Part shown: in pieces, positions 773 to 32,187 of the stretch
How positions within the stretch are numbered: the stretch's first letter is position 1
Layout: the number at the start of each line of letters is the position of its first letter
NCBI GenBank assembly: GCA_018057765.1
Contig: JAGPDB010000002.1
Location: 32,138 to 96,137, forward strand
Source of the DNA: Acidimicrobiia bacterium
Lineage (GTDB): Bacteria; Actinomycetota; Acidimicrobiia; IMCC26256; JAGPDB01
Direction: 5' to 3'
DNA: 64,000 bases
Notes under the pieces: generated by a model
The model's database searches: none
What the model saw: only the letters and a program-made list of their open reading frames with translations
Told to the model about the DNA's origin: nothing
Program-made: the position numbers and the translations under genes

Positions 773-1201
773 TTATGCCTCCACAACTTCTATACCCATT
801 GAACGACATGTGCCTTCAATTTGTAACATTGCGCCTTCAATGTCGATAGCGTTAAGGTCGGGCATTTTAACTTCCGCGATCTCTTTAACTTGAGCGCGAG
901 TAATTTTTCCAACTTTAGTAGTTCGAGGATTATCAGTACCCTTTTCTAAACCCGCAGCTTTAAGAATTAATTTTGGAGCTGGAGGAGTTTTGAGTTTGAA
1001 ATCAAATGTACGGTCATCGTAGATAGAAATATCTACAGGAATAACTTGACCTTTTTTATCTTGTGTTGCTTCATTGTAAGCCTTACAGAAATCCATAATG
1101 TTTACACCGGTTGGACCAAGCGCGGTACCAACTGGAGGTGCTGGAGTTGCACCACCTGCTTGAATCTGTAGCTTTACTACAGTAGTAATTTTTTTCGCCA
1201 T
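773..1201 (-). CDS. rplK: 50S ribosomal protein L11
   Basis: 142 aa carrying the L11 N-terminal motif [43 protein letters not shown]. Immediately upstream of rplA, the classic rplKA operon. Confidence 0.95.
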
Positions 1202-1317
1202 GAGGCTACCTGCTTTCTGTATAGTTACGTTCCTTGGTTTAAGGACATAATCACAAACCGAGGTTTTGTTTGCGAGCTTAAATTCTAGCGCTTTTCAGCT
1301 ATTAAGCCCAATCAGGT

Positions 1318-3177
1318 TTAAACAACCATACCAATAGGAGAAACTGTTGATGTACCAGGCCTTAAAAGGTCTGTGGGTATGTCAAGATCACCCAAAGCCT
1401 TTCTAAGACTGTCGATCCCTAAATATACGATTGATTTTTTCATATCAACAAAAACAGGATTTTTTAAGGAATATTTATCGCCCAATGGTGTAAGAACCTC
1501 AGTTCCGATATCTAAAACCAAAATTCTGTTTTTATCTTCACCAAGTGCAATACGCGAATAGCCACTGATTGTACTTTCATCAAATTTGGTTTCATTCGAT
1601 TCTCCCAGCTCCGCATCTACGTCTGGTGAAGACTCCAAACCAACATGTGTCAAGATACCTGTTTTAAAGTCAACAGTTTCCCAAATTACTCCTAAGTCTT
1701 GCAAAAATTTTTGTTCTTGTTCACTCAAACTTCCATATTTGCGGCTACTTAAAAAGCTTTTCAAAGTAGTTAACGGTTCACGGAGATTATCGTGACGCAA
1801 AGTATATATCTCACCAGAAGCCGTAACCAGCTCAGTTCCTACTGGGATAACTACATTTTGATTGAAGTTACCTTTTTTTGGAAGTTGATTAGGGTCAAGA
1901 TAACGGTCTGGAAAATTATCTGACCACATCTCTAAAGTTTTGAAATTGCGAGCTCTAATAAACTCATCGATTTCAAAGATGAACCCGCTTGCTAGTAAAA
2001 CTTTTCTCTGTTCATCAGAAATCACAAACTCGCCTTTGCGGATTTTATCCGCCGCAAAACCAACTTCTATTTTTACCTGGCTACTACTTTTATTTATTCC
2101 GAATTCTGCAATTAGCTTAGATGGTATATCTGCTAATTCAAAAGTTGCATTATTACCTATTGCTATGAATTCAAATTCTTTGTTAACTTCTTTCCATCTT
2201 TCGAAAGCAATTAGAAATAACTCAAAATCATGAGAGCCCATTTGCTCAAATACAATCGTATCTGCATTTTTCTTATCAGCTTTCATACCGTTGTTGTTTA
2301 TTAGCTCCTCTAGCAACTCAACATCGACAACAGTATTTCCGTCTATATTCAAATCAAACTCACCAGCAAAAAATCTACCTATTGCTACATCGCGTGTTTC
2401 ATCTATTCCATAAGGCCTGCCATTATGATCAAAGAAATAAGCACCTTTTTCGATATGAATTTTTGTATTTAATGGGAATAGTTTTGCATCTGGGTTCCGA
2501 TTCATCCAAAGTGCATATAGAGAATCATACATCGTACGTTCTGCTAATTTTTTACTTTTTAATACATCAACTGAAAGATCAGCAATCTCATATTGAAAAA
2601 TTATTCTTGGAATATTACCTTTCTCATTTAAATGTAAATAAAATTCTCCTACATCGAACGTAAGTGGCATAAAGATCTCGGATTTTTTACCATTAGCTAA
2701 TGAAAATTTTGTTCCTGGATCTAAGGTATATTTCTCACCAAGAATAGGTGGTCGTGAATTTTTCTTAATGAAAGATTCTAAAGCCATTAAATTTGCCATG
2801 AATTCAAAATGAAAAGAGGTTGGAGTAACATCTAATTGGGGAATATTTGCAATAGCATTATCGTTCAAAAAAGCTCTAATAGAAAGAGACCGTTTCGCAG
2901 TATAGCCACCAACGATCAGATACAATGGGTGAGCTAATTCTGCTTGTAGATGGTCGACCCTAATTGAACAACCTGCACAAAAATTAAAAGCCCGAAGCCT
3001 ATCGACCACCTTTCTACTATCAAATATTTTTGTGTCAGTATTTATACAGCTAGCAAATTGATATAATTCCGAACCAGCATTTCCTATAGCATCAGCAATG
3101 CTTGTAACTGGTTTACTTAAATATACAGGCGTCCCAGGTATACCTTTTGAACTATCATCATCCATGAAAATTTTCAT
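1318..3177 (-). CDS. Large hypothetical protein (619 aa) of unknown family. No P-loop and no recognisable catalytic motif.
   Basis: A long uninterrupted ORF with codon usage like its neighbours. Sits between rplK and nusG, where no gene is normally present. I could not assign a family from sequence alone. Confidence 0.6.
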   Translation of the reverse strand: MKIFMDDDSSKGIPGTPVYLSKPVTSIADAIGNAGSELYQFASCINTDTKIFDSRKVVDRLRAFNFCAGCSIRVDHLQAELAHPLYLIVGGYTAKRSLSIRAFLNDNAIANIPQLDVTPTSFHFEFMANLMALESFIKKNSRPPILGEKYTLDPGTKFSLANGKKSEIFMPLTFDVGEFYLHLNEKGNIPRIIFQYEIADLSVDVLKSKKLAERTMYDSLYALWMNRNPDAKLFPLNTKIHIEKGAYFFDHNGRPYGIDETRDVAIGRFFAGEFDLNIDGNTVVDVELLEELINNNGMKADKKNADTIVFEQMGSHDFELFLIAFERWKEVNKEFEFIAIGNNATFELADIPSKLIAEFGINKSSSQVKIEVGFAADKIRKGEFVISDEQRKVLLASGFIFEIDEFIRARNFKTLEMWSDNFPDRYLDPNQLPKKGNFNQNVVIPVGTELVTASGEIYTLRHDNLREPLTTLKSFLSSRKYGSLSEQEQKFLQDLGVIWETVDFKTGILTHVGLESSPDVDAELGESNETKFDESTISGYSRIALGEDKNRILVLDIGTEVLTPLGDKYSLKNPVFVDMKKSIVYLGIDSLRKALGDLDIPTDLLRPGTSTVSPIGMVV

Positions 3178-3252
3178 CCTTATTAATTGATTATAAAGAA
3201 TAGTTCTTATTGATACGGATACTCAAGTTTGAATAATTGATATACTCGGTTA

Positions 3253-3897
3253 ATGCAAAGCACAGTATTGATATATCTAAGTGGTACTGGGCCAATTCGC
3301 TTTCCAGTCGAAATCGACAAATTAAAGCTAGTCAAGGTTATTGCCGCGGATTCAGGCATTGAATTAGCGCAAAAACATAATACGCACGTTGATGTTTTAG
3401 TCGGTGATTTAGATTCAGCATCAGAACATTGCATATTGATAGCAGAGAAAGACGGCACTGAGATAATTGAATTTGACATTGACAAAGATTTTACAGATTT
3501 TGAATTAGCTGTGGCAGAAGCGAAAACAACAGATGCAGAAAGGTTAATAATAATTGGTGGGGGTGGGCTAAGAAGCGACCACCTACTTGCTAATATCTCG
3601 GTTTTAGCAGGAAGTCACACAGAAGAATTTATTGTTGATATATATTTCGAAAACGAGATATTAAAAATATGTAGAAATAATCAACCTAGAAATATCTATG
3701 GAAAAATTGGTTCCTTGGTTTCCTTGATTCCTGTAAATGGAGATGTACAAGGTGTCACTACTAATAATTTAAAATGGAATTTAGAAAATGAAAAGTTAAG
3801 TTCATCGCGCGCATTAGGAATCAGTAATGTACTATTAGATAATGAAGCAGATATAGAAATAAAAAGTGGATCGTTATTAATTGTCCAGCAGATTTAA
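3253..3897 (+). CDS. thiN: Thiamine pyrophosphokinase (TPK)
   Basis: TPK-like motif order: VIAADSG, VGDLDS (a GDxDS-like motif), a DxTDFELA-like motif, IIGGGGLRSDHLLANI, and a C-terminal thiamin-binding beta domain. Size 214 aa. Confidence 0.7.
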   Translation: MQSTVLIYLSGTGPIRFPVEIDKLKLVKVIAADSGIELAQKHNTHVDVLVGDLDSASEHCILIAEKDGTEIIEFDIDKDFTDFELAVAEAKTTDAERLIIIGGGGLRSDHLLANISVLAGSHTEEFIVDIYFENEILKICRNNQPRNIYGKIGSLVSLIPVNGDVQGVTTNNLKWNLENEKLSSSRALGISNVLLDNEADIEIKSGSLLIVQQI

Positions 3898-3975
3898 ATT
3901 ATTTAAGTTATTTAAATCTTTATCTTTCTATCTTTTTATTTTTTTATCTTTTTATCTTTTTATTTTTCTATTTCA
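3898..3975. repeat. Short T-rich tandem repeat (units like TTATCTTTT / TATTTTTC) between convergent genes
   Basis: The string ttatctttctatctttttatttttttatctttttatctttttatttttctatttc is directly visible. It sits between the thiN stop and the MarR stop. Confidence 0.5.
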
Positions 3976-4427
3976 ACACCAGGTGCTATTGAATTAAATA
4001 CATCTGTTAAATATTTTACTTTGCCATCACCTATTGGTTCAATAAAGTTTTGCAAAACACCATCGACATGTACAGAAGAATATTTTTTTATTAGCGCAAA
4101 ACCTTTTTTAGTTAACTGACAAGTTTGACCCCTACCATCTTCTAAAACTTCTAATCTTTTGACCAAACCGTCTATTTCTAATTGTGTGACTCTATAAGTC
4201 AACCTGGATTTATTTGCGCTAACACTTTTAGCTAAATCTGTCATACGCATAGAATGGTCATTGCTTTCGGAAAGTTTGACAAATATCTCGTATGTCAAAA
4301 GATCAATTCCTGCACTTTTTTCTAAATCTTCATTAAGTTTTTTCGTCAGACGAAATTGTGCACCAAGAAATGCTCTCCATAATTTTTGTTCTTCTAGTGT
4401 TAACCACCGTTTTGGTGCTTTATCCAT
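3960..4427 (-). CDS. MarR-family transcriptional regulator
   Basis: 155 aa. A winged-helix region (MTDLAKSVSANKSRLTYRVTQLEIDGLVKRLEVLEDGRGQTCQLTKKG) typical of MarR. Divergent from a YceI-like gene. Confidence 0.85.
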   Translation of the reverse strand: MDKAPKRWLTLEEQKLWRAFLGAQFRLTKKLNEDLEKSAGIDLLTYEIFVKLSESNDHSMRMTDLAKSVSANKSRLTYRVTQLEIDGLVKRLEVLEDGRGQTCQLTKKGFALIKKYSSVHVDGVLQNFIEPIGDGKVKYLTDVFNSIAPGVEIEK

Positions 4428-4550
4428 TTTTCCTCTTAATCTTTACTATTAACCTAATTGTATTGACAATTCAGAATATTGTTCAAATCTGAACTATATT
4501 CTATTCCATTGATACAATATATGTTATATCAAAGATAATAAGGAGATAAA

Positions 4551-5087
4551 ATGACATTACCAATCGCTACCGGAAAATGGGCTATAGACCCAACACATTC
4601 AAGCATCGGATTTATTGCGAAACATTTAGGTTTCACAAAAGTTAGAGGATCATTCGAAGAATATTCACTCGAAGTAAACGTAGGCGATACATTAGAAAAC
4701 TCAAGTGTAAGTACTACAGTTAATTTAAATAGTGTCAATACTTCGAATGCAGACCGTGATGAGCACCTAAAGGGTGCGGATTTTTTTGGTGGCAGCGAAA
4801 ACCCAACAATGGTCTTTAAATCATCATCAATTACTGGTAGTGCAGATGATTTTAAAATATTAGGTGACCTAACTATCAATGGAAAGACAATGCCAGTTGA
4901 ATTCGAAGCTGAATTCGGTGGAGCAGTTACAGACCCATTCGGAAATCTAAAAGCTGGGTTTGAAGCTAAAGGTGAAATTAACAGAACTGATTTCGGCATT
5001 AATTGGAATGTTCCAGTTGGAGATGGTTTTCTAGTTTCAGAAAAAATCAAAATTGAATTAGATGTACAATTAACACCCGCTAGTTAA
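4551..5087 (+). CDS. YceI-like (polyisoprenoid-binding) family protein
   Basis: 178 aa. N-terminal WAIDPTHSSIGFIAKHLGFTKVRGSF and C-terminal EINRTDFGINW are characteristic of the YceI family. Has a GGAG RBS. Confidence 0.85.
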   Translation: MTLPIATGKWAIDPTHSSIGFIAKHLGFTKVRGSFEEYSLEVNVGDTLENSSVSTTVNLNSVNTSNADRDEHLKGADFFGGSENPTMVFKSSSITGSADDFKILGDLTINGKTMPVEFEAEFGGAVTDPFGNLKAGFEAKGEINRTDFGINWNVPVGDGFLVSEKIKIELDVQLTPAS

Positions 5088-5132
5088 ATTTCCTCAAAAG
5101 ACTCTAAGGTCTGTACTTGCCGCGCAGTTTAT

Positions 5133-5170
5133 CCATATATGGGTAAATTTTGCAGGGACGGACCTTGTAG
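5133..5170. repeat. Copy a of the conserved intergenic hairpin motif (…atatgggtaaattttGCAGGGACGGACCTTGTag)
   Basis: Near-identical to the 8826-8860 copy, including about 20 nt of 5' flank. Stem gcaggg/ccttgt with loop ACGGA. Confidence 0.6.
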
Positions 5171-5206
5171 ATCCTTGTAGAGCTTGTACCCTACAACTTG
5201 ACAAAC

Positions 5207-5938
5207 TTAGAGTTTGGCTACTTGACCAAATTCCAATTCAACTGGTGTTTCGCGCCCAAAAATATCAACAAGTACTTTAAGTGTATTCTTATCAATATCA
5301 ATATCTGAAATTGCACCATTGAAATCTGCAAAAGGACCAGTAGTAACTCGCACTTGTTGTCCAACTTCGAAATCTAAACGAGGATGAGATTTAACTGCAG
5401 CTGCTACTTGTGTTTTCTCACCAGTATCACCACTACCCAAAATATTTTCTACTTCTTTACGGCTTAACGGATTTGGTTTTGAATCAGCACCAACGAAACC
5501 AGTAACACCAGGTGTGTTACGAATCACGTACCAAGTATCATCATCAAGATTCATACGAATCAAAACATATCCTGGAAAAACTTTTTTCTTAACAATAGTT
5601 TTCTTGCCATTTTTAAATTCAATAACGTCTTCCATAGGAACGACTATTTCGTGGATACGCTCTTCAACATTCATAGAACGCATACGAGTCTCTATATTTT
5701 GCTGAACACGGTTTTCGTATCCTGCATATGAATGAAGTACATACCATTTACCTTTGCGGTCATATGGAGAAATGATAATTTCGTCTTCGTCTTCATCATC
5801 ATCACTTGAAACCACATCAACAAGTTCAGCAGCATCATCAAAAGCAACTTCGCCCTTATCAATTGTTTCGGGTTCAACGAACGCAGTTCCGTCTGCTTCA
5901 TTGATTTGATCGGTTTCGTTTATAGTTGTTTCTTCCAT
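5207..5938 (-). CDS. nusG: Transcription termination/antitermination factor NusG, with an acidic N-terminal extension
   Basis: An NGN domain (WYVLHSYAGYENRV) and a KOW region (FEVGQQVRVTTGPFADFNGAISDID). Lies downstream of secE. Confidence 0.95.
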   Translation of the reverse strand: MEETTINETDQINEADGTAFVEPETIDKGEVAFDDAAELVDVVSSDDDEDEDEIIISPYDRKGKWYVLHSYAGYENRVQQNIETRMRSMNVEERIHEIVVPMEDVIEFKNGKKTIVKKKVFPGYVLIRMNLDDDTWYVIRNTPGVTGFVGADSKPNPLSRKEVENILGSGDTGEKTQVAAAVKSHPRLDFEVGQQVRVTTGPFADFNGAISDIDIDKNTLKVLVDIFGRETPVELEFGQVAKL

Positions 5939-5972: not shown

Positions 5973-6344
5973 TTATTTACTGTAAATTATATTTGCTAAT
6001 TTTTCAGCACCGTAATCAGTTCCAAGGATTAATATTGTAACAAGAACTATGCATACAAGTACAATAATGGTTGAATTTACCACTTCTTTACCGCTAGGCC
6101 AAGATACTTTTTTGAGTTCTTGCCATGCTTCTTTGAAAAAGTTTATAGATTTTTTGATGACATTTACTTTGGGAGCATTAGGATTTTTCGGTGGACGCTT
6201 TTTTGTGGCAGCATTCTTTTTCATATTTGCTCGTTGAGAATCTGCATCCATTCCCATTTTTGTGGTCATGCGACGCATCTCGCGGTTCATTGGTTCTTCA
6301 GGTGATGTCATAAGTGAATTCATTTTAGTACGCAATGAGCCCAA
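5973..6344 (-). CDS. secE: Preprotein translocase subunit SecE, with an N-terminal extension
   Basis: A C-terminal single TM helix with the conserved FFKEAWQELKKVSWPSGKEVVNSTIIVLV segment. Positioned immediately upstream of nusG. Confidence 0.85.
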   Translation of the reverse strand: MGSLRTKMNSLMTSPEEPMNREMRRMTTKMGMDADSQRANMKKNAATKKRPPKNPNAPKVNVIKKSINFFKEAWQELKKVSWPSGKEVVNSTIIVLVCIVLVTILILGTDYGAEKLANIIYSK

Positions 6345-6472: not shown

Positions 6473-7147
6473 TTATTTTTTGGTTGAAGCCATTGAAAGG
6501 TTTTTTAATGCTACTCGTATTGCAGATATAGCTTTATCTACTTCAAAGTCACGCACTAATACCATAATCTCATTTAGTGTTGTGTATATTTCTATTACCG
6601 AAATACCTTCCCAAGCTAAAATCCTGAGTGGGAATTGCAATACACCTGTAGTTTCAATTTGACCATGTGTGCGTTGCAGAGAAATACCAGTCAGATCGGG
6701 GATGATGTTGACGATTTCTTCATTTTTTAATTCAATTTCTAAAGTCGATTGTAGTGATTTACTTGTTATTATTGATGTCTCATTAAACCCTTGTGTGAAA
6801 ATAAATACAGACGCGAAGTTAGTTTCCAAATTTTTTGAGATCTTTGCCAACTTTGTTAATAGCTCTGATGAATTTTTGACAGTCATTTCAAATAGGTCAG
6901 ATCGAAGTCCAAGGTTTGCTAAATAATCGGCCGGATTGACTTGATAGTAGGGTTTCATTTGGGAAACGTAACGCTGCAGAGCTATAACTACCGATCCCTG
7001 GGTAATTGATTTTCGCAATTCATTTTGTATTTGTGGCTGTATCTTGCGCGCCAAAGAAGAAAGGTTAATCAGCTTTTCGGTTAATGCTTCGCGCATATAA
7101 GGCGACTGGTTAACTATTTCTTCAACACTTTGTGAGATTGATATCAT
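6473..7147 (-). CDS. Hypothetical protein (about 224 aa)
   Basis: The ORF extends to 7213, but the plausible start is MISISQ (ATG at 7145-7147). No family recognised. Confidence 0.55.
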   Translation of the reverse strand: MISISQSVEEIVNQSPYMREALTEKLINLSSLARKIQPQIQNELRKSITQGSVVIALQRYVSQMKPYYQVNPADYLANLGLRSDLFEMTVKNSSELLTKLAKISKNLETNFASVFIFTQGFNETSIITSKSLQSTLEIELKNEEIVNIIPDLTGISLQRTHGQIETTGVLQFPLRILAWEGISVIEIYTTLNEIMVLVRDFEVDKAISAIRVALKNLSMASTKK

Positions 7148-7268
7148 GTATATTATTATACAGACACTATTAGAATTGTACAATATGTATAAATAATTGA
7201 TTCTTATCATCATTTCGCCTTTAATAACTTATACAAGCTACGAGCTTGTGGTATTTAAGGACGAGATT

Positions 7269-8810
7269 ATGGTTACTAAGAAGAAGAAAAGAACGAAACC
7301 AATTTTTATACGTGATACTGAAGGCATAGTTAGCAAAAAACTTGCTGAGTATCTTTTAAGTCTGCGCAAAACTGGTGAAGTTGATCAGACTCCAGTACTC
7401 ACTAAAACAAAAGCGGTTGCTTGGGCTAAAACACATACTACTTTTCCTCAACGACATTTGGACAGGTATGAACTTGGTCTAGTTGAAGAACAACTGAGAG
7501 GTCATTTTGATATCCGTTATTCAAGTACAAAGCTAGTTGAAGTTGCCGAATATGTATATAAAGTGCGAAGTGTTTACGGGATGAACCTTAGGCAATGTCG
7601 CGATTTTCTTTCGAGTCATTTCGTTGCGAGCAGACCAGCAGTACAAGACGCCTTAAATGCTGCGATTATGAATTCATTCCAACTTTCAAGAGATCTACCT
7701 TTTTGGGATCAAGCTCAGTATGGAAAATTTGAATACCTGTGCAAGAATTTAGCGGATGAACAAAAAATAGACACTCGGCTTGGTTGGGAAAGACACGTGT
7801 TCACCCAGGTACAAAACTATATATTCCAATGTCTACATATGGCTTCTCCCAGAAATGATGCTCGATACAAAATAGCTCCTGATGAGCTTAAAAGGTTTAG
7901 GCCAATAATCGAAAACGAGCTAAGAGCACTAGTAGATCGCAGTCGCGATGCTGGACAAGAACAACTTGTTGAACTCACAAAAAGAATAATAGAAATTAGC
8001 TCATTTCGGTCAATAGATTTTTCAGGATTTGATCTTGCAGTAGCTTTCATGTCGCAATTTGATCTACCTAATTTTGAGCTTTATGCGAATCTAAGATTAT
8101 TCATATCTCAACCCGAGAGTTTAAAAGCGGTTCAGAAATTTACTGAATTTGTTAAAGATTTATCGCCAGAAGAATTGGTTGAAAGTTTTAGACAGATAGC
8201 GCCCATACATCGTCATGGTTCCAGTGCTGTTGTGCTTGCGAACCTAATTAAGAGTAATGCCTTAACCCCAGAACAGTCTATTGCATTTGCAGAATTTGCT
8301 GTTCAAGAGTGGGCTGGATTCCCAAAATATAATCATGAGAAAGCAGACAGACTATTCAATTTTGGAATGAGTGGCGAGTTGGATGCATTTAAAGATTCTA
8401 ATAGTCAAGCATACGAAGCATTTATGCTATTTTCTGTTCTTAGAAAACAACCGACAGAGGATTGGGATAAAATCCCCCGAAGTACAGGGCCAAATCCTGC
8501 GTTTGATGTGCTTGTGAATAGTTTTCCAGAATATGTTGAGAAATTAATCGATGCCAACTTTGTCCCAGAGCAAGAGGAAATTAGTACCGTAGCTAAGGCA
8601 TTTGGTTTAGATAGCGATGATCCCGCCGTTACTAATGTTTTACAACAATTAGTGACTCATCCTAATGCCAGTGACGTATTAGCTAGCCTTCAAGTTCGCA
8701 GAGCAGACAGGGAAGCTAAATCCAGTGCCATTCGAGCATCCATATTACAAGAAGGAGTTACGTCCTCAATCCAAGCCAGCTCAATAGAAGCCTTACCAAT
8801 AACCCACTAA
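7269..8810 (+). CDS. Hypothetical protein (about 513 aa)
   Basis: Start MVTKKKK at 7269 with an AAGGA RBS. A long ORF with no recognised family. Part of the block between secE and tRNA-Trp. Confidence 0.6.
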   Translation: MVTKKKKRTKPIFIRDTEGIVSKKLAEYLLSLRKTGEVDQTPVLTKTKAVAWAKTHTTFPQRHLDRYELGLVEEQLRGHFDIRYSSTKLVEVAEYVYKVRSVYGMNLRQCRDFLSSHFVASRPAVQDALNAAIMNSFQLSRDLPFWDQAQYGKFEYLCKNLADEQKIDTRLGWERHVFTQVQNYIFQCLHMASPRNDARYKIAPDELKRFRPIIENELRALVDRSRDAGQEQLVELTKRIIEISSFRSIDFSGFDLAVAFMSQFDLPNFELYANLRLFISQPESLKAVQKFTEFVKDLSPEELVESFRQIAPIHRHGSSAVVLANLIKSNALTPEQSIAFAEFAVQEWAGFPKYNHEKADRLFNFGMSGELDAFKDSNSQAYEAFMLFSVLRKQPTEDWDKIPRSTGPNPAFDVLVNSFPEYVEKLIDANFVPEQEEISTVAKAFGLDSDDPAVTNVLQQLVTHPNASDVLASLQVRRADREAKSSAIRASILQEGVTSSIQASSIEALPITH

Positions 8811-8825
8811 TGTACAGTTTATGTA

Positions 8826-8860
8826 GATATGGGCAAATTTCGCAAGGACGGACCTTGCAC
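8826..8860. repeat. Copy b of the conserved intergenic hairpin motif (atatgggcaaatttcGCAAGGACGGACCTTGCac)
   Basis: Perfect 6-bp stem gcaagg/ccttgc around loop ACGGA. The flank is shared with the 5133-5170 copy. Confidence 0.6.
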
Positions 8861-8876
8861 AATCAGACAATACAGT

Positions 8877-10040
8877 TTAAAGGCCGGGCTGATGTGGTGT
8901 AGTAGCCAGAGTGGTAGGTGGTGTAGTTGCGGGTGGTTGAGTTGTATGAGGAATTTCTTGCGTTGCAACAGTTGATTCCCCACCATCACTCCAAGGTTGG
9001 TGGTGAGGTTTCTCTGGTATGACCATACTTGGATCATGTGGAGGATTTTTTGGTCGGTTGTTATCTGGTAATAGTGATGGTTCGCCCTCTGGATCTGCAA
9101 AACTACGTTTGGTATTAGGCGAATTTGGGATATGATGTCCTGAAGTTCCCTCAGTATCGTTAAGTTCAAATGTTGAAAGACGATTAGCATCTATAGAAGA
9201 TGGGCGTGGGCTCTGATGAGAGGCTACAAGCCGGGGATAACTAAATTTCTCAGGTACACCACCAAAAGTTGATGGTTCAATTATTATAGTGCGCATAGCC
9301 TTGCCATTCTCACCTATATCTTCATTGTCAATACTTACACCATCGAGCTTGTGAGCATAATCAAATACCAAGCTACCTGAATTAGCCTCAATAAGCTGGC
9401 GTACAATATCTTTATGGTCAAGACCCTCAAACTTTTCTATGTTTTTTAATACCGAAAGCCCATTACCCGCAACTATAAGCCTTCGCGCAATTTCACCATG
9501 ATATTTAGCATCAAAATTTTCTATACCCACGGCAGCTTCAAAGCCAACACCAGCATCAATTGCACTTTCAACAACAGACATTTGATCTAATTTATCGAAT
9601 ATGTTCATATTATTAATTACAAAACTGAATTCTCGTTTTTGCATTAAATGATCTGCAAGTTCAGCTGTTAGATTTTTGAATCCTTCTATATATTTTTTAA
9701 CATCATTGACATAGCCATTTTCTGTCAAAAATATCGCAATCGCATTATGGTCCGATTCAGGAAAGTATTTGATCCCTGGTGCTATGAACTCTCCATAGCC
9801 ACCAACTATGAGACCGACTGCTATCTCTGCATCTAGGGAACTAACTTTTTCGTAACTATATTCCTCTAGCTTATATGCTACTGCCCACCCTTGTTTTAGT
9901 GCGATAAGCCTATGAGCAATATACTTTTGATCTTCTGGTGAATATCTAGAGACATCGATTGATAATCTTTCATAATCTCCATTGACTAATCTTATATCCG
10001 CTTGTTCTCTTGGTATTGTCATCCCATTAGCATACAACAA
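8877..10040 (-). CDS. Hypothetical repeat protein (387 aa) with about 7 internal roughly 24-aa repeats and a Pro/Thr/His-rich C-terminal tail
   Basis: Repeats of the form xxxIAxxLIxxGxGxxVxxNxxKF (for example HRLIALKQGWAVAYKL, ARRLIVAGNGLSVLKNIEKF, VRQLIEANSGSLVFDYAHKL). The tail reads TTQPPATTPPTTLATTPHQPGL. Confidence 0.65.
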   Translation of the reverse strand: MLYANGMTIPREQADIRLVNGDYERLSIDVSRYSPEDQKYIAHRLIALKQGWAVAYKLEEYSYEKVSSLDAEIAVGLIVGGYGEFIAPGIKYFPESDHNAIAIFLTENGYVNDVKKYIEGFKNLTAELADHLMQKREFSFVINNMNIFDKLDQMSVVESAIDAGVGFEAAVGIENFDAKYHGEIARRLIVAGNGLSVLKNIEKFEGLDHKDIVRQLIEANSGSLVFDYAHKLDGVSIDNEDIGENGKAMRTIIIEPSTFGGVPEKFSYPRLVASHQSPRPSSIDANRLSTFELNDTEGTSGHHIPNSPNTKRSFADPEGEPSLLPDNNRPKNPPHDPSMVIPEKPHHQPWSDGGESTVATQEIPHTTQPPATTPPTTLATTPHQPGL

Positions 10041-10506
10041 ACATATACTTTACGTCAAAAGGGCGTATTGTGATACTTTAAGTCGTAAATACAGGAATAA
10101 TGTGAAGTGCGTATATTAGTTTACTAAACCTGGTGTAGATGTTACTGCCACTGTCGTATCAGTCAACGCACTTCTCGGTACATAGTTCATTTTTCTTACA
10201 TTTGGTAAAGCAGGCTCTGCAGGCATACCTAGATGCCTTTGTGAATCTAATCCAGCTGACACACCGCTCACAGCTGGAGATGTTGCTTCTTGATGTGGAC
10301 TTGGTATATTTGCTTGAGACATATTAACACTCTACATACATAAGACTTAATATGTCAAGAATACAGAAATTTTAGTTTGTATATCGTAAAGTTTAATGTT
10401 AGAAGTAATACAAACAGCAGTAATATAAGAATATATATCTTACATCACATATGGTGTATATACATTAAGTTGACATTAAAGAACGATTTCTTCTATTCTT
10501 ATCTTC

Positions 10507-11322
10507 ATGCTAAAAACACTATCTAAGGGATATTATGGACCATTTAAAGCCACACGCTTGATTGGTAGGGGCCACTCTGGAAAATTAGCTACCACACTCA
10601 GAAATTATCGCGATTTAGATTATTCACATGCATTTAACCTGATAGGAACTAATCATGGAGATCAGGTTGCGCAAAATATTATGAGCTTTATGGCTAAACG
10701 CCATGGAATAATTGTTAAAGAACTAATTCGTCAAAAGAAATTTACTGAGCTACTCAAAAATATAAAAATATTGAATAGTGAAGTTACTAGCAGGATCGAG
10801 CCAAACGAATTAGCGAAGCTCGCTATTGACTTAGATGATGTCGAAGGGTTAAGTGAATTAGATAAGACAAAGCGTATTGGTAAACTAGTAAATTATCTAA
10901 GCAACTTTGATACCTATAAATTAGATAAATATGTTGCTCAAGCCATTATCGACGCTGGACTAATTAAACAGTTTTCTGAGAATTTAAATAAATTTTTTGA
11001 TCTCGATTTAAAAATAGTGCTCCAATTATTTGAAGCGGGATACGGCGAAAAAGCCTCACTAAATAATCGTAGCTTTAAAGACGTAAGCATCAAAAAAGAA
11101 ATTCTTCCATATACTGGCCACGCCATCTATGGAATTCAAACCCCATCCTCCATAGAAGATGAAGAACCCATCCTGAGAATATTTACTGAAGATACTATGA
11201 TCCTGGACAGTTCAAATGCAGATACAGAAACACGATTTCTTGAATTTATGAGACATGCCAGTTCGCAAATAACTGATGGTGCAAATAAAATAGCCACAAG
11301 TTTTCAACTGACTAATCCTTAA
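10507..11322 (+). CDS. Hypothetical repeat protein (271 aa), paralogous to the 8877-10040 product by repeat type
   Basis: The same roughly 24-aa repeat family (YVAQAIIDAGLIKQFSENLNKF, LKIVLQLFEAGYGEKASLNNRSF). Confidence 0.6.
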   Translation: MLKTLSKGYYGPFKATRLIGRGHSGKLATTLRNYRDLDYSHAFNLIGTNHGDQVAQNIMSFMAKRHGIIVKELIRQKKFTELLKNIKILNSEVTSRIEPNELAKLAIDLDDVEGLSELDKTKRIGKLVNYLSNFDTYKLDKYVAQAIIDAGLIKQFSENLNKFFDLDLKIVLQLFEAGYGEKASLNNRSFKDVSIKKEILPYTGHAIYGIQTPSSIEDEEPILRIFTEDTMILDSSNADTETRFLEFMRHASSQITDGANKIATSFQLTNP

Positions 11323-11403
11323 TTTACACTAATAAGTTAATAGTTTCCTAAAATTATAAATCTGTGGACAACTTCGCTAAAGGCTAAACCTTAATACTTG
11401 CTT

Positions 11404-11523
11404 CGCAGGGCACAAGGGACCCAGAACTACCGTACCCCAACCAGGTTGGGGAAATAAATATATGCAGGACACAAGGGACCCAGAACTACCGTACCCCAAC
11501 CAGGTTGGGGAAATAAATATATG
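11404..11523. repeat. Two tandem 60-bp direct repeats that are degenerate copies of the 3' end of the adjacent tRNA-Trp (att-like pseudo-tRNA ends)
   Basis: The unit gcagg(g/a)cacaagggacccagaactaccgtaccccaaccaggttggggaaataaatatat occurs twice, followed by the real tRNA beginning gcagggcaggagggactcgaacccccaacc. Each unit has an internal perfect hairpin ccccaacc-a-ggttgggg. Confidence 0.75.
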
Positions 11524-11597
11524 CAGGGCAGGAGGGACTCGAACCCCCAACCGCCGGATTTGGAATCCGATGCGCTACCAATTGCGCCACTGCCCTT
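11524..11597 (-). tRNA. trnW: tRNA-Trp (anticodon CCA)
   Basis: The reverse complement reads AGGGCAGTGGCGCAATTGGTAGCGCATCGGATTCCAAATCCGGCGGTTGGGGGTTCGAGTCCCTCCTGCCCTG. Has a cloverleaf with TTCGAGT T-loop and anticodon loop TTCCAAA. Confidence 0.9.
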
Positions 11598-15157: not shown

Positions 15158-16048
15158 TTATTCATACTTGCCGCTAGTCAAATTTTTTTTAATTTCTTCA
15201 ATTGCAGTATTTATCTTTGCTTTATTGCCTAGCTTTAAATTGTATTCTAAATCCCGAAAAGCAATGATGCTAGCGCGCAAGGCAATTTTCCTATTTAAAA
15301 TATCATTAGCGCCATATGATTTTAATGCTGATTCCAGAACCACTTGATCTTGTATGGCACAAAAATCTTGCGAAGCATCATAGTAGCCCAAATCTCCAAA
15401 ATCTATTACCCCAATAAAACCATCTTTCTTCATAATAAGGTTCCCGTAGCCGATGTCTCCGTGACACATTACTGGTTCAATTCCAAGTGACTGTATTTTT
15501 GTTGGAAATAATTCTTTAACAAAGTTATTCAAAATAGATATTTCATTCAAACTAAATAACTCTTTGAGAGCCATTTGTAAATTTGTATACTTCTGACCCA
15601 ATAACAATATTTCGTCTTCAAGAGATATTCTTTCCAATCCATCTAGTTCCAATGAATGCAACTTCTTTAGAAAGGTACCCAATGTAATGCCGATATGGAT
15701 TTTAGTTTCAGCGTCGAGTTCATTTTGTATATCTCTTAATTCTGATCCGACGACACCTTCGTAACCTATATATTCGTATTTGTCAGACACCCAAAGAATT
15801 TTTGGTACTTGAATGCTCAGTTGTTGATTCTCTAAAAGATAGTATATTTTTACTTCACTTCGGTAGTCGTCTTTCACTTCGGAACGTCTTGGAAACTTAA
15901 AAACATACTTACCTGAATCGACAATGTAGACACGACTCATCCAACCAGTTTCATTTAATTCAATTTGAACATTTGCATTACCCTCTAAGTCACTAACAAG
16001 CTCGACAACAATTGCTTTCTCATCATCAATATTAAATGCCATAATCAA
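15158..16048 (-). CDS. Aminoglycoside/choline-kinase-like phosphotransferase (APH family, protein-kinase-like fold)
   Basis: Catalytic motifs HGDIGYGNLIM (a Brenner HGDxxxxN motif) and IDFGD (a DFG-like motif). 296 aa. The start overlaps the upstream gene stop (ATGA). Confidence 0.8.
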   Translation of the reverse strand: MIMAFNIDDEKAIVVELVSDLEGNANVQIELNETGWMSRVYIVDSGKYVFKFPRRSEVKDDYRSEVKIYYLLENQQLSIQVPKILWVSDKYEYIGYEGVVGSELRDIQNELDAETKIHIGITLGTFLKKLHSLELDGLERISLEDEILLLGQKYTNLQMALKELFSLNEISILNNFVKELFPTKIQSLGIEPVMCHGDIGYGNLIMKKDGFIGVIDFGDLGYYDASQDFCAIQDQVVLESALKSYGANDILNRKIALRASIIAFRDLEYNLKLGNKAKINTAIEEIKKNLTSGKYE

Positions 16049-18324
16049 TTATTATAATTTGTACGAAAGAAGCTTGTAGCTAGTATCAAGACACCACTAG
16101 ATATTAGCAATATGGCAAAGAGTAAATTCTCTACAATATTCAGACCAGTACTAGAAAGTTCACCATTAGCAATACCTGTCACACTCCCAACAGAATTAAG
16201 ACCAGGAGCAACATTTTCATTTTCGAAATTAGATATCAATGGCACTGTAGTAGTTATGTTTTGAACAGGAGTAGTCACAATAGTTGTTGTAGTAGTGGAT
16301 TCTTGATCTGAATTAGGATCTCTCGTAGTATAAAGAGAACCTCCGTAAGCTCCGGCAACTAAATATGTACCACTTGCATTCATTGTAATGCTACGCCAGT
16401 CTGCTGAACCCAAATCGTCATGTCGAGTCCATGTGACTCCCCCGTCTGTTGAGGTATGTATATAGCCAGGATCTGCATAGTCTCTTTCTGTCGCTGCCAA
16501 AATGCTCCCATCAGCATTTGATGAAATAGACGTCCATTCGGTTTGAATACCTGATGATGTTCTTTCGATCCACGTTGTACCAGCATCAGAAGAAGTATAA
16601 ATATAGCCACCATTTGGATAGCTAGCATCTGTAGCAGCCAACATATTTCCGTCAGAACTAGATGTGATGGACATGAGGTTTTGTGAACCAATAACATTTC
16701 TAGCTACCCACGTAACTCCATAATCAGTTGACATATATGCATAATCATTTTCTACAGTCACCAATTTACTGCCGTCAGCACTTGAAGTAACACTGCTTAA
16801 ATATTGAGCGCCGGTCACTAGAGAAGTCGTCCAATTTTGTCCACCGTCGTTGGATAAATAAATTGTATCTGTACCATTTGCAGCAGCTAACTTTGTTCCA
16901 TCAGCACTAGAAGTAATTGATGTCCAATATTGAGTACCAAGGTCCGAGTTTTCAGTCCAAGTAAGTCCAGCATCGTTAGAGTTATATACATATCCACCGT
17001 TAACAAGTCCTATTAGTTTATTACCATCTGCGCTTGAAGTAACAAATATCCAATCGCGAGCACCCGAAGTAGTTTGTTGAACCCAAGTTACGCCAAAGTC
17101 ATTAGAGGTATATATATAATCTCCTGATGCACCTGCAGCGACCAGATTTTTACCATCTAAACTAGAATCTATTGATATCCACGGGTTGACTCCAGGAATA
17201 TTATTTTCTTTTTCCACCCATGTTGTACCAGAATCTGAAGAAATATAAATATAGCCTCCGCTAACATAGTTGTTGTCGGTAGCAATAATTTTGTTGGCAT
17301 CTTTAGAATAAGTAACAGTATCAAAATTATGCATGCCGCCTGTTACTGCCTGTGATGTCCATGTGGTGCCTGAATCATTCGAGATGTAAATACTTCCTCC
17401 ACCAAACTGTAAATTTACTGCTACTAATTTAGTGCCGTCGGAATTCGATGATATATATTTCCAATTACGATTTCCAGCTGAAGTTTGTTGTGTCCATGTA
17501 ACACCTGCATCATTTGAAGTATAGATATAGTTATTTCCAGCAACTGCTGCTAATTTATTCCCATCATCGCTAGAGGTTATTGAATAGTAGGCATGAGGTG
17601 CTCCCATTGAAGTTCTCTTTGTCCACGTTGCACCTGAATCATTAGAAGTATATATATAGCCTGATGATGAATTATTATTTGCTGCGGCTAACTTTGTACC
17701 ATCTGCACTAGATGCTATAGAAGTTACATAAAGAAATGAAGCAACTTCGACTCTAGATGAGTTCCATGTAATACCATAATCACTCGACTGATATACATAA
17801 CCACCACTGTAATCCCCAGTTGCAGCGATTTTTGAACCATCAGCACTCGACACAATAGATGTCCAATAATGAGAACCGCTTGCTGTTTGTTTTATCCAAG
17901 TAACGCCAGAATCAGAAGATGTATAAATATATCCCTCAATTTCTGCGAGTGCTAAATGTGTGCCATCAGCACTAGAAGAAATTCGGCTAAATTTTTTATT
18001 TACAGGAGTAGTCTGATCTACCCAAGTCTCTCCAGAATCGCTAGAAGTTTGAACAGTCCGATTATTTCTTATGACTGCTAACTTCGAACCATCATTGCTC
18101 GCTGCGACTGGACTCCAATAGTTATATCCATTCTTATCGATCTTATGCCATGTATATCCGCCATCTGCATTTGCAGGGATTGTCAAAACTATCAACAAAA
18201 AGAAAGCTGCCGAAATCATAAAGCGTGACCACAACACACGCTTTGTATTATTTGATGTCTCGAAAATATTCATATGTCGCTTTTCTTGATTTGTTCGATA
18301 TAACATCGACCAAAAAACAAGCAA
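16045..18324 (-). CDS. Cell-surface BNR/Asp-box repeat beta-propeller protein, Ycf48/sortilin-like (about 740-759 aa)
   Basis: At least 13 S-x-D-x-G-x-T-W Asp-box repeats (SSDSGETW, SSDSGVTW, SNDSGATW, SNDAGVTW and others). An N-terminal signal/TM segment, a Thr-rich linker and a C-terminal TM anchor. Alternative starts exist at 18273. Confidence 0.85.
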   Translation of the reverse strand: MLVFWSMLYRTNQEKRHMNIFETSNNTKRVLWSRFMISAAFFLLIVLTIPANADGGYTWHKIDKNGYNYWSPVAASNDGSKLAVIRNNRTVQTSSDSGETWVDQTTPVNKKFSRISSSADGTHLALAEIEGYIYTSSDSGVTWIKQTASGSHYWTSIVSSADGSKIAATGDYSGGYVYQSSDYGITWNSSRVEVASFLYVTSIASSADGTKLAAANNNSSSGYIYTSNDSGATWTKRTSMGAPHAYYSITSSDDGNKLAAVAGNNYIYTSNDAGVTWTQQTSAGNRNWKYISSNSDGTKLVAVNLQFGGGSIYISNDSGTTWTSQAVTGGMHNFDTVTYSKDANKIIATDNNYVSGGYIYISSDSGTTWVEKENNIPGVNPWISIDSSLDGKNLVAAGASGDYIYTSNDFGVTWVQQTTSGARDWIFVTSSADGNKLIGLVNGGYVYNSNDAGLTWTENSDLGTQYWTSITSSADGTKLAAANGTDTIYLSNDGGQNWTTSLVTGAQYLSSVTSSADGSKLVTVENDYAYMSTDYGVTWVARNVIGSQNLMSITSSSDGNMLAATDASYPNGGYIYTSSDAGTTWIERTSSGIQTEWTSISSNADGSILAATERDYADPGYIHTSTDGGVTWTRHDDLGSADWRSITMNASGTYLVAGAYGGSLYTTRDPNSDQESTTTTTIVTTPVQNITTTVPLISNFENENVAPGLNSVGSVTGIANGELSSTGLNIVENLLFAILLISSGVLILATSFFRTNYNN

Positions 18325-25394: not shown

Positions 25395-25724
25395 TTAATG
25401 AGAAGACATATATGACGAGACAGTTGCAATTATGAAGGCTACTGTCAACAAGGCATTAATAATGAGTGCAGCCATCGCAAATTTTTGATTCTTCTTTTTC
25501 GCATTAAAGGCAATAGCTGTTCCGATTGCGGCAACGAAAGCAATAAACAAAAATGCTAAATATAGATTTCCAAGACCACGCAAATCAACACAATTTGGTT
25601 GGCCTTCACACGCTAGAGGCTTGCGGCCATTTTTTTCTATTTGTCCATATATCCACAGGATAAGAAAAGTTGCTGGCACCAATACTACTGACCAGAGTGC
25701 CATATTATTTTTATTTTTCTCCAT
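25395..25724 (-). CDS. Small hypothetical membrane protein (about 100 aa, 3 predicted TM helices)
   Basis: A hydrophobic ORF. The start is possibly at MALWSV. Confidence 0.45.
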   Translation of the reverse strand: MEKNKNNMALWSVVLVPATFLILWIYGQIEKNGRKPLACEGQPNCVDLRGLGNLYLAFLFIAFVAAIGTAIAFNAKKKNQKFAMAALIINALLTVAFIIATVSSYMSSH

Positions 25725-25825
25725 ACAATTAGGTTAGTGCGGATTTGTTATAAATTGTTGACTATTTAGCATATAGCAGTTGGGGTGTGAATATGAAAGC
25801 AAGTTCCTCACTCTCCTCTTGAGAG

Positions 25826-25870
25826 TTCGGCTACCAGAGTCGAACTGGTGACCTCATCCTGATCATGAAC
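25826..25870. repeat. Partial duplicate (30 identical bp) of the 3' half of tRNA-Thr, located 37 bp downstream of the intact gene
   Basis: ctaccagagtcgaactggtgacctcatcct at 25831-25860 matches 25902-25931 inside the tRNA. The flanks are also similar. Confidence 0.7.
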
Positions 25871-25892
25871 ACTGTCGCTCGAAAAGCGCAAT

Positions 25893-25968
25893 TGGAGCCT
25901 CCTACCAGAGTCGAACTGGTGACCTCATCCTTACCATGGATGCGCTCTGCCAACTGAGCTAAGGAGGC
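25893..25968 (-). tRNA. tRNA-Thr (anticodon GGU)
   Basis: The reverse complement reads GCCTCCTTAGCTCAGTTGGCAGAGCGCATCCATGGTAAGGATGAGGTCACCAGTTCGACTCTGGTAGGAGGCTCCA. CCA is encoded. Confidence 0.9.
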
Positions 25969-31948: not shown

Positions 31949-32112
31949 ATCACGCCAACACTTCAGTGGATACATCACACTGAAATAAAAAATACAGAGA
32001 GTGGGCCAAGCGGGTTTCCATAGGGAAACCCGGTAACAAACTTAAATCGTCGAATCGCGCCAACACTTCAGTGGATACATCACACTGAAATAAAAAATAC
32101 AGAGAGTGGGCC
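31949..32112. repeat. Pair of 58-bp direct repeats (one mismatch) flanking a 46-bp spacer with a perfect 9-bp-stem hairpin. The second repeat overlaps the 3' end of tRNA-Tyr.
   Basis: atc(a/g)cgccaacacttcagtggatacatcacactgaaataaaaaatacagagagtgggcc occurs at 31949-32007 and 32053-32112. The spacer contains cgggtttcc-ata-gggaaacccg. Confidence 0.75.
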
Positions 32113-32187
32113 GGGTAGGATTCGAACCTACGTAGCTCTCGCAGCAGATTTACAGTCTGCCCCCTTTGGCCGCTCAGGTACCGACCC
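32107..32187 (-). tRNA. tRNA-Tyr (anticodon GUA), type II with a long variable arm
   Basis: The reverse complement reads GGGTCGGTACCTGAGCGGCCAAAGGGGGCAGACTGTAAATCTGCTGCGAGAGCTACGTAGGTTCGAATCCTACCCGGCCCA. No CCA is encoded. Confidence 0.85.

Follow-up and report, generated by a model that had tools for sequence, protein, structure and literature searches.

Tandem partial tRNA-Trp duplicates and a variably filled tRNA-Trp-secE interval in low-GC Acidimicrobiia

Known tRNA-adjacent repeats and the tRNA-Trp locus

When prophages, integrative conjugative elements, or islands integrate into a tRNA gene, the displaced 3' fragment of the tRNA comes to lie at the far end of the inserted DNA. A related arrangement is found in a 64-kb stretch of contig JAGPDB010000002.1 (the window, by which we always mean this whole stretch) from a small, AT-rich Acidimicrobiia genome. 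Here, tRNA-Trp is followed by two tandem 59-bp units with degenerate copies of its 3' end, and then by a block of five genes that separates it from secE and nusG. As in the classical systems, a direct partial duplicate of the tRNA, extending from the variable loop/T arm to the 3' end, is situated downstream of an intact tRNA. However, a recombinase and a distal copy are absent, no element separates the copies, and the duplicates, which are arranged in tandem, have been conserved across genera along with a hairpin that is not part of the tRNA. On balance we favour the reading that the units are an old trailer module of tRNA-Trp, amplified by unequal crossing-over, and that they lie beside a slot as old as the clade, which has been refilled via recombination anchored at the tRNA and at secE-nusG.

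The closest structural precedent is the tyrTV locus of Escherichia coli, whose distal repeats are co-transcribed with the tRNA. Checking the sequence NC_000913.3 directly, we found three in-register 178-bp repeats after tyrV, which each contain the last ~21 nt of tRNA-Tyr and overlap the annotated rttR (a small RNA) and tpr. Both loci have in-register tandem units directly after the tRNA, copies of the tRNA 3' end within these units, and no integrated element. The E. coli unit is, however, 178 bp long compared to 59 bp in the window, the sequences are not related, and only the window units contain a palindrome complementary to the T stem.

The closest ecological precedent is provided by Ca. 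Actinomarinales, in which tRNAs are described as the insertion targets of cassettes with direct repeats of tRNA fragments and without identifiable mobile elements. There, the repeat is reported at the far end of the inserted cassette and the content varies within species (Lopez-Perez et al. 2020, PMC7771536; bioRxiv 10.64898/2026.04.03.716425). The likeness concerns the streamlined low-GC genomes of the Acidimicrobiia class, the tRNA-adjacent content that differs between relatives, the direct repeats of part of a tRNA, and the absence of integrases and mobile-element genes. Equivalent locations are also occupied by different genes in the case presented here, with seven fillings in seven lineages. 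In contrast, the tandem window repeats abut the tRNA and show conservation across genera, and the cargo is the same throughout the species. The tRNA-Trp-secE junction is not described in the Ca. Actinomarinales papers (PMC7771536; bioRxiv 10.64898/2026.04.03.716425).

Architecture and conservation of the tandem units

The end of tRNA-Trp (...GGTTGGGGGTTCGAGTCCCTCCTGCCCTGCA) runs straight into the two units, which on the tRNA strand are described by the formula TATATTTATTT-CCCCAACC-T-GGTTGGGG-TACGGTA-GTTCTGGGTCCCTTGTG(T/C)CCTGC(A/G) and are 98% identical to each other. A unit begins with an AT-rich spacer, continues with a perfect 17-bp palindrome (CCCCAACCTGGTTGGGG), and closes with degenerate versions of the T-loop and the acceptor 3' strand of the tRNA. 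In the palindrome, the 5' arm (CCCCAACC) is complementary to the variable-loop/T-stem segment GGTTGGGG of the tRNA. The second half of the unit (GGTTGGGG-TACGGTA-GTTCTGGGTCCCTTGTG[T/C]CCTGC) resembles the variable loop, T arm, and acceptor 3' strand of tRNA-Trp (GGTTGGGGGTTCGAGTCCCTCCTGCCCTGC), relative to which this half carries a 7-nt insertion. The non-tRNA sequence ahead of each pseudo-end amounts to 20 nt only, comprising the AT-rich spacer and the palindrome 5' arm.

The original prediction had regarded the repeats as degenerate copies of the tRNA 3' end, and local alignments of tRNA-Trp with the downstream 260-400 nt agree with this (z = 4.9-5.0; none of 300 and none of 200 shuffles equalled the score). 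The tRNA gene is real (68.2 bits with the Rfam tRNA model at 11524-11596) and is followed on the same strand by two tandem repeats as predicted, but its proposed position, 11524-11597, was off by one (Table 1), and the unit is 59 and not 60 bp long. The Tandem Repeats Finder (TRF) reports a period of 59, 2.3 copies, and a score of 247 for the array, and since the 3' end of the tRNA itself makes up the 0.3 copy, array and tRNA-Trp are in register. A decay of whole-tRNA duplicates was ruled out as the origin of the units, whose 5' parts do not match the 5' part of the tRNA better than shuffles do (p = 0.15-0.86). The 64 kb contain two copies of a 41-nt core of the unit and no others, compared to zero occurrences expected from shuffles. 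A dispersed repeat without connection to tRNA-Trp can be dismissed as well, as a metagenome scan recovered the unit pattern at two stretches only, both adjoining tRNA-Trp, and no match was found in IMG/VR.

The tRNA-Trp of the window is identical over all 74 nt in six related lineages (L059, L061, L063, L067, L068, and L069), and in four lineages (the window, L059, L067, and L069) the same module follows this tRNA although the genes further downstream are unrelated. Two units are present in L059, with an 85-nt GC-rich insert between them, two in-register 67-nt units in L067, and one unit in L069. Homologous units are thus found with different downstream genes, so the unit belongs to the tRNA and not to the cargo. 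In L061, a CCCCAAC motif found by eye 24 nt after tRNA-Trp may be the remnant of a unit; no unit follows tRNA-Trp in L063 and L068, and a covariance model (R1) detects none in L061, L063, and L068. Over 712 kb of loci, this model retrieves only the seven known units and, in addition, weak hits on genuine tRNA-Trp genes. The GC-rich insert of L059 (8137-8201, ~65-85 nt) is unrelated to the units, contains the hairpin GCATCGCGGGC-CAA-GCCCGTCGATGC, and stands out from an AT-rich genome.

The hairpin and the pseudo-3' blocks of the module are conserved, while the spacer and the linker have drifted. CCCCAACCT and GGTCCCT are invariant in the alignment of all units (7/7, four lineages), and between lineages the hairpin is 76-100%, the pseudo-end 83-100%, and the spacer plus linker 25-70% identical. 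The four-fold sites of NusG are only 39-59% identical between lineages (36% by chance), and the 120 nt upstream of tRNA-Trp cannot be aligned. Because the hairpin and pseudo-end have been kept while neutral sites are near saturation, the module must be either constrained or continually reset. A resetting driven by the tRNA would account for the pseudo-end as well as for the 3' arm of the hairpin; the 5' arm, however, is absent from the tRNA and would be left unexplained. An exact copy of the tRNA end (CCTGCCCTGC) closes the proximal unit of L067, whereas the end of its distal unit (CCTTCCTTTA) has decayed; this is the outcome expected of unequal crossing-over between the end of the tRNA and a pseudo-end that already existed. 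The window matches this pattern, with unit 1 followed by the tRNA's own trailer and unit 2 followed by unique sequence. Within the species, contig L007 has a single unit, which is equal to unit 2.

Partial 3'-end duplicates just downstream of the gene are a general habit of tRNAs in this clade. The repeats linked to tRNA-Trp, tRNA-Tyr, and tRNA-Thr are the only three short-range non-coding direct repeats of at least 25 nt in the 64 kb. The copies of the tRNA-Tyr repeat are 91% identical. The tRNA-Thr copy, found 26 nt downstream of the gene, is an internal fragment lacking the last 9 nt of the tRNA, and the 'tRNA-Glu(ttc)' reported by ARAGORN at 25823-25916 is probably an artefact of this duplicate. 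In L059 (6033-6260), tRNA-Met is followed by two in-register 72-73-nt tandem units, which end with GGTCCCG(C/T)CCCCGCTACCA and copy the last 18-19 nt of the tRNA including CCA. The spacers of the Tyr, Thr, and Met repeats are unrelated to one another and lack an anti-T-stem hairpin, which suggests that they have a mutational process in common rather than a function.

Two further observations concern sequences of this type. In the tRNA-Tyr pseudo-copy, the T arm is replaced by a different perfect 8-bp hairpin, GGGTTTCC-CTAT-GGAAACCC, followed by ...GGCCCAC. In two distant GC-rich Acidimicrobiia, L031 and L025, in which tRNA-Trp abuts secE, a 13-nt tandem array occupies the short spacer: 7.1 copies of TCGAAGTCCCTGC beginning inside the tRNA end in L031 (1514-1605), and ~3.2 copies in L025 (1452-1500; TRF consensus GTCCCAACTCGTA, first copy TCGAGGTCCCAAC). 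These arrays were considered as tRNA-like (T-loop, T-stem, and terminal CTGC), but the similarity is too short and the shuffle test not significant.

The tRNA-Trp-secE interval and its genes

In distant GC-rich Acidimicrobiia, tRNA-Trp is found directly upstream of secE in every locus that holds both (29/29). The order in these loci is Tyr-Thr-Met-Trp-secE-nusG, which the window retains with every interval stretched. The arrangement in the window is therefore derived, and the original prediction was right in that tRNA-Trp normally adjoins secE and that a conserved junction has been split here. In the low-GC clade, the gap is filled in all seven lineages (the window and six relatives, whose NusG is 72-84% identical to that of the window), each time with different genes (Table 1). 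The separation of tRNA-Trp and secE must therefore be old. The closest relatives were recovered via protein homologues and exact-protein look-ups; among those with tRNA-Trp on the contig, NusG identity to the window reaches 84% at most. The set of five genes is not repeated in any relative. The nusG-rplK, rplA-rplJ, and Tyr-Thr intervals of the conserved cluster are also variably filled, so the separation of tRNA-Trp from secE is one case of a general exchange of genes around a skeleton that is itself conserved.

Between the units and secE, five open reading frames (ORFs) on both strands fill the interval 6473-11322. This agrees with the original prediction of five genes of unknown function followed by secE, except that one of the five can be assigned to a family. 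The 224-aa protein matches DUF7523 and ACT, has more than 100 homologues at 50-84% identity, and is modelled by AlphaFold2 (mean pLDDT 86) as an N-terminal helical domain plus a tandem-ACT fold, for which Foldseek finds regulatory subunits of aspartate kinases (E about 1e-8). Homologues of its gene are found in other genomic contexts in L071 and L072, e.g. beside rpsJ. The gene is a relocated resident gene of the clade and not foreign DNA. Across the same-species contigs (e.g. loci L003 and L010) it is called as 245, 224, 167, or 118+109 aa within 6473-7213, which suggests an ambiguous start site and frameshift or nonsense variants in some strains.

Close homologues of the 271-aa helical-repeat protein are confined to the species, and an exhaustive HMMER search adds only remote matches (29-34% identity) to very large, uncharacterised multi-repeat proteins. 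The 381-aa protein shows a weak repeat similarity to it (E = 0.006). No homologue of the 513-aa protein was detected outside its own 90%-identity cluster, and the 271-aa and 68-aa proteins have no match in Pfam. None of the five proteins matches a model in PHROG, PADLOC, or NCBIfam. The GC content of the block is within the local range. The five-gene block is fixed and nearly invariant within the species: all same-species contigs contain the same five genes at identities of at least 99%, and the sole variation consists of the unit copy number in one contig and the truncations of the 224-aa gene. More than 10 independent same-species assemblies show one and the same layout, which rules out an assembly artefact. 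In the 381-aa protein, the C-terminal third (8877-9300) is a low-complexity region rich in Pro, Thr, and His, and coincides with a local GC maximum (0.43) and with most of the between-strain differences of the block. SecE comprises 116 aa in most same-species contigs and 120 aa in L004.

Table 1. Features of the tRNA-Trp locus and of related repeats in the window, and genes filling the tRNA-Trp-secE interval in six relatives.
Feature	Position	Strand	Remarks
tRNA-Trp (anticodon CCA)	11523..11596	-	ARAGORN; 74 nt
Unit 1 (59 bp)	11464..11522	-	end ...TCCTGCA; covariance model R1 55.1 bits
Unit 2 (59 bp)	11405..11463	-	end ...CCCTGCG; covariance model R1 57.2 bits
Perfect 17-bp palindrome, unit 1	11494..11510	.	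read from sequence; hairpin predicted
Palindrome, unit 2	11435..11451	.	copy of unit 1 palindrome
271-aa helical-repeat protein	10507..11322	+	convergent with tRNA-Trp
68-aa ORF	10116..10322	-	called in all same-species contigs
381-aa protein, Pro/Thr-rich C-terminal tail	8877..10022	-	most variable block gene between strains
513-aa protein	7269..8810	+	homologues none detected outside own 90%-identity cluster
224-aa DUF7523 protein	6473..7147	-	longest ORF to 7210/7213
secE	5973..6323	-	Pfam SecE, E = 2.5e-19
nusG	5207..5938	-	Pfam NusG and KOW
tRNA-Thr copy, 37 nt (30 nt perfect)	25831..25867	-	anticodon-loop-to-T-stem segment of tRNA-Thr (25893-25968)
tRNA-Tyr direct repeat, 70 nt, period 105	31949..32123	-	includes last 18 nt of tRNA-Tyr (32106-32187)
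Gap filling, relative 1	Trp-secE		AhpC
Gap filling, relative 2	Trp-secE		fasciclin + AhpC
Gap filling, relative 3	Trp-secE		ECF sigma, anti-sigma (RskA), TMEM175
Gap filling, relative 4	Trp-secE		APH + TMEM175
Gap filling, relative 5	Trp-secE		TMEM175 + 1270-aa protein, family unassigned
Gap filling, relative 6	Trp-secE		five other genes

A similar turnover is visible elsewhere in the cluster. The normally adjacent nusG and rplK are 4 kb apart in the window, and the interval (1201-5207) encodes a 615-aa protein without family match, a thiamine pyrophosphokinase, a MarR regulator, and YceI; in the relatives the kinase is kept and the rest varies. Proteins of ~500 aa without Pfam match are encoded in the rplA-rplJ interval of the relatives. 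A gene for a 109-aa membrane protein is located directly downstream of tRNA-Thr in the window (25395-25724, minus strand), and its homologue directly downstream of tRNA-Tyr in L059 (1831-2157; 48% identity, E = 5e-36). This gene has moved between tRNA-adjacent slots. Seven copies of a 33-nt motif with a spacing of about 123-138 nt are found at 16637-17983 of the window, inside a 742-aa ORF (16045-18273, minus strand) that has no Pfam match and looks like an internally repetitive protein.

Competing explanations and significance

According to the favoured reading, that of an old trailer module beside a refilled slot, copy number would change through unequal crossing-over or slippage between the real tRNA 3' end and a pseudo-end, and the crossing-over would reset the end of the proximal unit to the tRNA sequence. 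The pseudo-end would be kept mainly through conversion against the tRNA. The hairpin might serve the tRNA-Trp transcript as a terminator poor in U-tracts or as a processing/stability hairpin; judging from the sequence, such a role in ending or stabilising the transcript can be proposed with low confidence only, because neither a U-tract nor covariation is found. The Trp-secE slot would have been open since the base of the clade, and the five genes would be the filling of this species, composed of one relocated clade gene (DUF7523/ACT) and four lineage-specific genes. Its turnover would probably proceed without a resident integrase, by recombination anchored on the invariant tRNA and on the conserved secE-nusG flank, which agrees with the descriptions of tRNA hot spots in the flexible islands of Ca. 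Actinomarinales. The five-gene block itself is not flanked by the units, nor can it be recognised as an integrated element.

Several observations weigh against this reading. With respect to the hairpin, the T-rich tract precedes it instead of following it, the folding energy of the units is no better than that of shuffles, covariation is absent, and the units have no more than a 6-bp hairpin in common. Canonical terminators are present in the clade, for example after the tRNA-Met of L067 and the fasciclin gene of L059, while a scan for intrinsic terminators revealed no canonical one in the units. The proposed RNA function is therefore weak, and a structured RNA was rejected on the same grounds together with the lack of any Rfam family in a scan of the units at E <= 1. 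A palindrome that binds a protein at fixed spacing was also judged unlikely, as the distance of the arms, determined by eye, appears to depend on the lineage (~4-7 nt). Furthermore, the tRNA-Met and tRNA-Tyr units lack the anti-T-stem hairpin, so that a function common to all these repeats is doubtful, and the one-unit variant L007 could be an assembly collapse. With respect to the slot, the relatives were examined over ~20 kb each. The four large block genes deviate mildly in codon usage (z of -0.5 to -1.9, all negative) and have a higher GC3, and thus part of the block might be of foreign origin. The array ends in a pseudo-end and not in a spacer, and is followed by unrelated DNA, as is the case at an attR site. 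It is possible that an ancient att scar gave rise to the very first unit, although the present five genes would even then not be an island.

A stronger view of the module than that of an old trailer would be that the unit is a functional 3' appendage of tRNA-Trp, in which a T-stem-complementary hairpin is combined with a decoy acceptor strand. We consider this possible, if rather doubtful. The appendage might act in the formation of the pre-tRNA 3' end, or it might provide a safe secondary recombination site, at which cassettes could be exchanged without a resident integrase and without harm to a putatively single-copy tRNA-Trp.

At the other extreme, the units could be functionless by-products of slippage and unequal crossing-over, conserved only because of gene conversion against the tRNA and homogenisation between the palindrome arms. 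The arrays are indeed in register and vary in copy number from lineage to lineage, and possibly also within the species. Similar 3'-end duplicates with unrelated spacers follow tRNA-Tyr, tRNA-Thr, and tRNA-Met, and cargo-free 13-nt arrays start from the tRNA-Trp 3' end in the distant L031 and L025. Neither covariation nor extra folding energy is seen, and the loss of the unit from L061, L063, and L068 has had no visible consequence. However, the 5' arm CCCCAACCT, which is not in the tRNA, has stayed invariant in 7 units of 4 lineages near neutral saturation, and DNA without use should have been removed from a streamlined genome. We therefore regard a pure by-product as unlikely.

The original prediction had interpreted the block as an island integrated at the 3' end of tRNA-Trp. 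In its complete form this explanation assumes that the island entered by site-specific recombination, that the pseudo-ends are stacked att scars, and that the five genes are a decayed island whose integrase and distal repeat have been lost. Partial direct repeats of a tRNA 3' end are the classical signature of integration, the cassettes of Ca. Actinomarinales with their tRNA-fragment repeats offer a parallel (PMC7771536), and the attR-like end of the array and the slightly deviating codon usage would fit. The block is also lineage-specific, with a 513-aa protein without homologue and with no block gene in the loci of the relatives, and the cargo at this site differs in every lineage. The repeats are, however, on the wrong side. 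Both pseudo-3' ends lie between tRNA-Trp and the block, at most 120 nt from the tRNA and each preceded by 20 nt of non-tRNA sequence, and no further tRNA-Trp 3' fragment was found at the secE side or elsewhere in the 64 kb (up to 3 mismatches, blastn-short). The block is thus outside the repeats. The prediction was correct in noting the missing integrase: the five proteins match no integrase or recombinase family in Pfam, NCBIfam, and PHROGs, and none is present in the gene tables of the window species or of the equivalent gaps of the six relatives. The suggested searches of the block proteins did not support an island either, with no match to PHROG, PADLOC, GenBank phages, and IMG/VR. A phage attP was rejected as well, since the 3' 30-mer of the tRNA is absent from IMG/VR and GenBank phages match only via whole tRNA-Trp genes. 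The empty site is seen in the 29 distant loci, and in the closer clade (NusG identity of at most 84%) every lineage is filled. In addition, the architecture of the unit follows the tRNA in lineages with unrelated cargo and is hence not tied to the block, one gene of the block is a clade gene that has been conserved but relocated, and the block is fixed and nearly invariant within the species. The island in this complete form is therefore improbable.

An assembly or chimera artefact, for which one could invoke the several same-species contigs that break within the units and the single unit of one megahit contig, has next to no probability, as the two-unit version recurs identically in more than 10 contigs that stem from different samples and different assemblers, two NCBI genome assemblies among them, and as homologous units exist in unrelated JGI, ENA, and NCBI assemblies of other lineages.

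For annotation, the locus is a warning in two respects. Pseudo-tRNA ends beside a tRNA are alone no proof of an integrated island, and they can yield spurious tRNA calls such as the 'tRNA-Glu' described above. Streamlined planktonic bacteria shuffle tRNA-adjacent genes with almost no integrases. The locus presented here is situated at such a hot spot and combines a compact, conserved, tRNA-derived module and an anchor identical across genera with lineage-specific cargo. It is thus a tractable test case for distinguishing between tRNA-anchored homologous recombination, unequal crossing-over at pseudo-ends, and an undiscovered recombinase acting in trans. If the units were functional appendages of the tRNA, the duplication of 3' ends found at tRNA-Trp, tRNA-Tyr, tRNA-Thr, and tRNA-Met would drive changes of gene order in streamlined Acidimicrobiia in general.

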